Source: Escherichia coli (lineage in GTDB: Bacteria; Pseudomonadota; Gammaproteobacteria; Enterobacterales; Enterobacteriaceae). From it: 64,000 bases of DNA. Below the pieces are notes generated by a model. The model ran no database searches. It was not told where the DNA came from and saw nothing but the letters and a program-made list of their open reading frames with translations. The stretch is from the NCBI RefSeq assembly GCF_003790525.1, contig NZ_CP033635.1, one strand, 5' to 3'. The position numbers and the translations under genes are program-made. Shown piece by piece: positions 40,339-41,114 of this stretch; the first letter of the stretch is position 1; every line of letters begins with the position of its first letter.

Positions 40339-40542
40339 TCTTCTGAATCACCGGGCGACAAAATATAACTGAGTTACAAATAAGTACCAGTCGAATGAGT
40401 ATTGTATTAAGAATTTTTGAGTATCGCTGATACAACCAGAAAGCAATGCTAGCGCAATATTATAGGGCCAGCAATTGAGATTATTAGCAAAAGCATGTTA
40501 AGAGTTAATCACCGAATTTATATATTAATTATAGTAAGGCAA

Positions 40543-40559
40543 TGAGCTATTTTTGATAG
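40543..40559 (+). repeat. 17-mer tgagctatttttgatag, copy 3 (1 mismatch)
   Basis: matches the motif upstream of both ilvN-uhpA islet genes; about 205 bp upstream of the setC start. Confidence 0.4.
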
Positions 40560-40724
40560 TAAAAATAAAACAAGTTGATTTGATATATTACATGAATAAA
40601 TTAATCTTGATGGCAGTCTGATTATTGGTGAAGTTTATAGGTCAGTTTTTTCGTCAGCGGTTAAAGAAATAGAATAGTCGTATAAAAAAGGGTGTGCAGA
40701 AGCGTGTAAAACAACATCTTCACC

Positions 40725-40925
40725 TTAATGGCGATACCGTTGGCTGAGAGTCAGCAGGGGGGCAAATCACCTGCAAATAAACACGGCGCATGCTGGCGCG
40801 AATATCGCGGATGCGTTCGAGGACAGAAGAACCGACAGGCGGATTCTTCAGTCGCTCATCGTCCATCACAAAACTTTTGATCAGGTATTCCTGAAGCCAG
40901 TAGAAAATATCTGGATTGACAGTAT
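40725..40925 (-). pseudogene. short gene remnant, possibly RhuM-family fragment
   Basis: minus-strand translation ...FYWLQEYLIKSFVMDDERLKNPPVGSSVLERIRDIRASMRRVYLQ... with no start codon; family assignment from memory only. Confidence 0.25.
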
Positions 40926-40959
40926 TACGAGGGGTTGGAGAACGTATGAAGAGGCAAAT

Positions 40960-40979
40960 TGGCGATCACAGGAGTCGAA
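40960..40979 (-). other. remnant of the tRNA-Sec (selC) 3-prime end, likely an island att repeat
   Basis: gatcacaggagtcgaa is the reverse complement of the selC 3-prime segment TTCGACTCCTGTGATC; no intact selC in the window. Confidence 0.55.
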
Positions 40980-41114
40980 TATGAATGTTAATGTTTTGAT
41001 TTTAAATGATTAATCTGTGTTGGATAAATGAGTAACCCCCATAAGAACCCCCAAATAACTTAGTGTAAGGGAATGAAGCTAAAATACACAATCGAATCAA
41101 TTCTTAGAGCTTTA

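Follow-up and report, generated by a model that had tools for sequence, protein, structure and literature searches.

Which DNA beside setC is chromosomal and which belongs to an island?

In Escherichia coli K-12, selC (3836222-3836316) is followed by yicT (3836425-3836556) and then by setC (from 3836953), with a selC-setC spacer of 636 bp. In the E. coli DNA analysed here, a single stretch of 64 kb referred to below as the window, setC is present at 39154-40338 (minus strand) as a 394-aa ORF. It encodes a sugar efflux transporter, belongs to the core chromosome and is annotated as setC in all relatives. The question raised by the locus is what became of selC beside it. An earlier note on this DNA had proposed that no intact tRNA-Sec gene remains next to setC, that a 16-nt exact match to the selC 3' end is the att duplication of a selC-targeting island, that a start-less, possibly RhuM-like gene fragment lies just inside this island, and that integration at selC possibly occurred more than once.

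A selC 3' end at its native position

There is indeed no intact tRNA-Sec gene: ARAGORN found no tRNA gene in the 64-kb window and Rfam no tRNA match, and no full tRNA-Sec cloverleaf (RF01852) is detectable in the window. What is found near setC is a displaced selC 3' end at 40960-40979 on the minus strand. The 16-mer GATCACAGGAGTCGAA, which is the reverse complement of TTCGACTCCTGTGATC within the K-12 selC 3' end, occurs exactly and only once in the window, at 40964-40979. The real match is longer than the 16 nt first noticed. TGGC at 40960-40963 extends it to TGGC(4 nt missing)GATCACAGGAGTCGAA, or 20 of the last 24 nucleotides of selC; in the alignment, the K-12 counterpart reads TGGC(GGAA)GATCACAGGAGTCGAA, and it is GGAA that is missing from the window. 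The Rfam tRNA-Sec alignment divides the 24 nt into the T-loop (7), the 3' strand of the T-stem (4), the 3' acceptor strand (9) and GCCA (4), and the two alignments together place the start of the repeat at the first base of the T-loop. The T-loop heptamer TTCGACT (tRNA strand; 40973-40979, minus strand) forms the island-proximal edge of the repeat. The displaced fragment, being on the minus strand, is oriented with respect to setC as selC is in K-12, and the 24-mer is uninterrupted at the equivalent position in relatives, for example TUM9803.

Alignment of window positions 40300-41120 to the reverse complement of the K-12 selC-setC region, a comparison proposed in the earlier note, revealed base-by-base collinearity from setC through the repeat and unrelated sequence thereafter. 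K-12 homology ends at 40979/40980, and the island boundary can be placed to the base at this junction. The DNA between setC and the repeat (40339-40959) is the native chromosomal selC-setC spacer, collinear with both K-12 and TUM9803 and carrying a 15-bp deletion relative to K-12. Because all of this DNA aligns with the K-12 spacer, the remnant marks the place where selC natively ends. The distance of about 620 bp from the remnant to setC was correctly given in the earlier note, but it is not unusual, since it is the length of the native spacer.

An exact match of just 16 nt with no tRNA gene nearby could in principle be a chance match that marks no island boundary. We give this explanation practically no weight. 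The chance expectation for GATCACAGGAGTCGAA in the window is 0.03 even when two mismatches are permitted, the match falls exactly at the selC 3' position in a 640-bp alignment to K-12, similarity to K-12 stops at the very edge of the 16-mer, and relatives carry the full 24-mer at that site. The alignment refutes a chance match.

The far end of the island in relatives

At selC, insertions have been reported to terminate in a direct repeat of 24 bp that forms part of the tRNA gene (Saile et al., PMC6174562). The tRNA gene is restored by the island, and the regenerated gene and the displaced fragment mark its two ends (Hudson, Lau, Williams; PMC4383910). In the Islander-type tDNA signature of Williams and colleagues, an island is flanked by an intact tDNA on one side and a displaced 3' tDNA fragment of like orientation on the other, and the start of the att site is in the T-stem/loop region. 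The locus described here does not differ from this signature in principle; of the two ends, the displaced fragment alone falls inside the window.

The other end is visible in relatives. In TUM9803, a junction with the full 24-mer is separated by ~61 kb from a tyrosine integrase and an intact tRNA-Sec gene holding the same 24-mer. HS4 has the junction of the window at 99.6% identity, including the 4-nt deletion, and carries the same integrase protein and an intact selC ~51 kb away. The integrase of the relatives (WP_001218900.1) combines Arm-DNA-bind_3, Phage_int_M and Phage_integrase domains, which is the P4-type architecture. Every relative examined that has this island end carries an intact 95-nt tRNA-Sec gene and the integrase at the opposite end and has a duplicated repeat. 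Together with the K-12 alignment, these far ends support the reading of the 16-mer as an att duplication, and they lead us to expect the same arrangement past position 64000 in the genome from which the window was taken.

A different account of the window would be that selC was truncated by an insertion or deletion that destroyed its 5' three-quarters, leaving no functional selC at the locus. The window shows the 3' end alone, and with a 4-nt deletion; moreover, a member of the same lineage, strain 702/18, has only a damaged 91-nt selC (see below). Against this stand the intact 95-nt tRNA-Sec gene, the integrase and the duplicated repeat in the relatives examined with this island end, and the fact that the island DNA starts at the first base of the T-loop, as T-loop att sites would predict. 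We therefore regard a truncated selC as very unlikely.

It is instead very probable that 40960-40979 is attR, the displaced original selC 3' end that was left in its native place when the island integrated site-specifically by means of its P4-type integrase. In the mechanism we propose, a large integrative island, extending from 40980 to beyond 64000, would have entered selC through site-specific recombination by a P4-type tyrosine integrase. The island would bring its own copy of the last 24 selC nucleotides, from the T-loop to CCA, so that integration would restore a complete selC beside the integrase at the far end, and the old selC 3' end would stay behind as a direct repeat beside setC. 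The predicted order beyond position 64000 is the P4-type integrase, then an intact 95-nt selC with TTCGACTCCTGTGATCTTCCGCCA, then yicJ. The most likely place for strand exchange would be the T-loop heptamer, where the repeat meets the island. All attR sequence 3' of this heptamer would then be chromosomal DNA and would persist as elements come and go.

An island of the AGI-3 type to the right of the repeat

The selC-integrated genomic island (AGI-3 / GIselC type) begins at 40980, where K-12 homology stops, and continues past the window end at 64000. At least 23 kb of it, all absent from K-12, lie in the window, and 99% of this DNA aligns with the TUM9803 selC island, at 99.1% identity. The loss of K-12 homology at 40979/40980 and the matching islands of relatives bear out the proposal that the material to the right of the repeat was integrated at selC.

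GIselC17584/1 has the repeats first described for AGI-3, the island of BEN2908: TTCGACTCCTGTGATC, which occurs twice, TTTGGGGGTACTTTAGGGGGT, and TTTGGGGGTTCTTATGGGGGT, which lies 76 nt from the distal 16-mer in GIselC17584/1 (PMC6174562). In the window, the 21-nt island-end repeat TTTGGGGGTTCTTATGGGGGT is present as a unique exact match at 41035-41055 (minus strand), 76 nt start-to-start from the 16-mer; it is a candidate arm-type site for the integrase. The island thus resembles AGI-3 (APEC BEN2908) and GIselC17584/1 (STEC) in its insertion site, in TTCGACTCCTGTGATC, TTTGGGGGTTCTTATGGGGGT and their 76-nt spacing, in its CP4-like backbone genes and in its carbohydrate-uptake cargo. For AGI-3, the likeness was measured by proxy: 83% of the island DNA in the window aligns at 97% identity to the selC island of APEC O2:K1:H5. 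Unlike AGI-3 and GIselC17584/1, the island in the window is a mosaic variant into which IS1414/IS3 have inserted, and 4 nt are missing from its repeat.

The first gene of the island is a DUF4942-family gene at 41115-41951 (minus strand), open over 278 codons and one residue different from the TUM9803 CDS. The ORF list had suggested that this gene is frameshifted, a reading we reject: the translation is open, and the TUM9803 CDS has a non-ATG start. It is followed, also on the minus strand, by further genes of the CP4-like backbone: a CbtA-family toxin (42463-42837) and a YeeU-family antitoxin (42927-43295), both recognised as ORFs that take their PGAP names from the 99%-identical TUM9803 region, and, at 44288-47229, a RadC-like JAB protein, an antirestriction protein, a DUF932 protein and a YeeP-like GTPase. 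The last assignments are based on an NCBIfam match to RadC (2.8e-47), GTPase domain matches and the PGAP names in TUM9803. Gp2-family proteins are also encoded in this part of the island. The cargo at 53959-59214 comprises a LacI-family regulator on the minus strand and, on the plus strand, ascorbate-family PTS IIA/IIB/IIC components and a split transketolase, identified as ORFs with PGAP names in TUM9803 and HS4. A link of the transketolase pair to tkt1 as a selC-island gene was considered and rejected: the literature places tkt1 between metE and ysgA, and the two are unrelated. An IS256-family (IS1414-like) transposase and an IS3-family orfA/orfB pair occupy 59355-62087 on the minus strand (ORFs; names from PGAP in relatives).

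GC content across the island is mosaic, ranging from 0.34 to 0.58. The interior of the island is nearest to TUM9803 and its junction nearest to HS4 and XDL. The IS elements and the mosaic structure suggest that parts of the island may have been acquired by homologous recombination and not in one integration event. As a separate observation, an AT-rich segment at 47330-50136 (GC 0.34-0.40) encodes a 407-aa hypothetical protein, and within it ~1.6 kb at 48553-50136 contain no ORF of at least 100 aa.

selC is a classic hotspot for insertion, occupied by LEE, PAI I536, SHI-2, Tia-PAI and LAA variants. The island shares its attachment site and a related CP4/P4-type integrase with LEE, PAI I536, SHI-2, Tia-PAI and LPA, and the flanking repeats have been reported to be identical among several of these elements. 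It differs from them in cargo: no marker genes for the LEE T3SS, hly, iuc or tia were found in the part of the island within the window. Both this kind of junction and the hotspot are thus already known, the island family has been described, and the junction as such is ordinary textbook biology. What the analysis adds here is the assignment of ~23 kb of the window to this family and, as described next, the removal of the RhuM fragment from the inventory of island genes.

A chromosomal RhuM fragment, yicT

The frame that leads from the repeat toward setC on the minus strand encodes ...WLQEYLIKSFVMDDERLKNPPVGSSVLERIRDIRASMRRVYLQ..., part of an internal fragment of a RhuM-family gene at 40735-40896 (minus strand) that has neither an N- nor a C-terminus. 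It corresponds to the K-12 pseudogene yicT. The fragment matches Pfam PF13310 (Virulence_RhuM) with E=3e-11 over model positions 52-98 of 252, the supported segment being 40768-40896, and PGAP annotates a 'rhuM' pseudogene with both termini absent at the equivalent stretch in all relatives inspected. The earlier description of a start-less, RhuM-like fragment is therefore accurate. About 45-55 codons are left of some 300-340, full-length relatives being 305-347 aa. K-12 yicT contains an internal stop that is missing from the copy in the window, which in turn is shortened by an in-frame deletion of 15 bp.

Its placement inside the island, in contrast, did not hold. The repeat separates the fragment from the island and leaves it on the chromosomal side, facing setC, and K-12 has the fragment too with no island present. 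The fragment therefore does not belong to the island on the right. One could nevertheless argue that the present island extends outward to include the fragment as its last gene, with the true boundary nearer to setC than the repeat is. In favour of this, rhuM is a known cargo gene of SPI-3, the selC island of Salmonella, and in Escherichia albertii a selC island remnant has a DUF4942 gene and then rhuM with no repeat between them. We judge it highly improbable, because the fragment and its surroundings abut selC directly in both K-12 and 702/18, with no island between, and because the fragment is on the setC side of the repeat with no further selC-derived copy toward setC. Contradicted by the empty-site genomes, the idea survives only in the form of a relic of an older, separate element.

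Such an older origin was explored by scanning one genome per species for the motif FVMDDERLKNP, which gave at least 120 loci and should be read as a sample and not as a census. Among the matches listed, four species (Pseudescherichia vulneris, Enterobacter sp. ENT03, Morganella psychrotolerans and E. albertii) and one short MAG contig have tRNA-Sec a short way upstream in the same orientation. In P. vulneris (locus L048, 803-2303), a full-length rhuM (342 aa) starts 250 nt past selC, and beyond it the selC 3' end occurs again as a displaced copy (21/24 identical), which makes a minimal islet of 1.4 kb with no integrase. In E. albertii NBRC 107761 (locus L027, 11271-14050), the genes after selC are an integrase of the selC type that is truncated at its N-terminus, a DUF4942 gene and a rhuM of full-length appearance, the last extending to the contig end; no selC-derived copy was found between DUF4942 and rhuM at this locus. 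Over its short length, E. coli yicT is 75-88% identical in DNA sequence to these selC-linked rhuM genes. With the RhuM of Salmonella SPI-3, the window shares the Pfam RhuM match and the selC locus but holds only an internal piece of the gene. Judged from sequence comparison, yicT is probably what remains of a rhuM gene formerly located directly downstream of selC, where other Enterobacterales still have it, and would be older than the present island.

Repeated use of selC and a deletion in the outer repeat

A search of the 64-kb window for a second selC-derived copy (16-mer, up to two mismatches) found none, and in local alignments of the 24-mer to the yicT-setC spacer nothing exceeded chance (best score 9, matched by 25% of shuffles). 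Tandem arrays or older att scars are therefore unsupported. Of the earlier suggestion that integration occurred more than once, the tandem form is unsupported, no second copy having been found in the window, and repeated use of the site is upheld through strain comparison only. Among 5426 complete E. coli genomes, the selC site is empty in 2492, the island-end junction of the window is found in 726 and the end of a P4-like satellite is at selC in 350. The intervening DNA is absent from empty-site genomes with otherwise collinear flanks, namely K-12 and the lineage-mate 702/18.

The core flank at 28000-40338 is essentially identical to that of SMS-3-5 and at least 10 other genomes. Within the lineage of the window, the repeat lacking 4 nt is found in four settings, each time on one and the same flank haplotype, to which the 15-bp yicT deletion also belongs. 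It adjoins the AGI-3-type end in the window, HS4, XDL, 2D and CM2; a diverged variant of that end in TUM1586; an 11-kb P4-like satellite in SMS-3-5 and 16 others (at least 98.8% identity); and an empty site in 702/18. The integrases of the AGI-3-type island and the P4-like satellite are 71% identical. The sole selC copy of 702/18 (NZ_CP074701.1; locus L016, 6101-6191) is 91 nt long, with the 4-nt deletion inside the acceptor stem. It scores 69.4 bits against the Rfam tRNA-Sec model, compared with 83.8 for K-12, and two acceptor pairs are broken. There are two possibilities for this 91-nt selC: it could be either an excision scar or an ancestral damaged allele. We also observed that the selC satellite of SMS-3-5 (locus L011, 24980-36216) carries a 2.7-kb SIR2-family gene adjoining its integrase, likely an anti-phage cargo gene.

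The ATCC 8739 group has the same 4-nt deletion on a flank that resembles K-12, where it is also beside a P4-like satellite, and EC556 and CFSAN061771 carry a P4-like satellite with the full 24-mer. Spread of the deletion between the two flank haplotypes by homologous recombination was considered and is implausible, since flank SNPs lie 4-5 nt from the repeat.

The simplest reading of these sequence comparisons is that the 4-nt deletion belongs to the chromosomal lineage and not to the island. This would agree with the mechanism proposed above: if attR 3' of the heptamer is chromosomal, the deletion would travel with the host lineage and not with the island. The sharing of the deleted outer repeat by strains with different elements in turn points to strand exchange within GATCACAGGAGTC. 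The damaged outer repeat would thus mark the host lineage, and excision in that lineage is implied to give a defective tRNA-Sec gene, a point that is only mildly new. A more far-reaching idea, which we put forward tentatively and consider rather doubtful, is that the damage to the chromosomal selC 3' end gives this lineage a working tRNA-Sec only while an element occupies the site, which would make the host dependent on the element. If this were true, loss of the element would leave a crippled 91-nt selC, as in strain 702/18, and the same deletion in the unrelated ATCC 8739 group would mean either a recurrent origin or a link to the P4-like satellite.

Other features of the window

An ETT2-associated eip/eilA/air locus, absent from TUM9803 and K-12, occupies 20659-36494 between nepI and yicS. 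It encodes a 2933-aa inverse autotransporter (Air/EaeX), EilA, an IpaD-like protein, YopB/SseC-like translocon proteins and a SycD-like chaperone. At ~35139-35145, the window has a run of seven T residues compared with eight in SMS-3-5 and all other listed relatives, which splits the YopB/SseC-like gene into two ORFs (33969-35105 and 35132-35749); the T7 run reflects either a genuine frameshift or an error in sequencing the homopolymer. In the core region, the istR small RNA of the tisB/istR type I toxin-antitoxin locus was identified at 3602-3731 (150 bits), the only Rfam match in the window at gathering thresholds.
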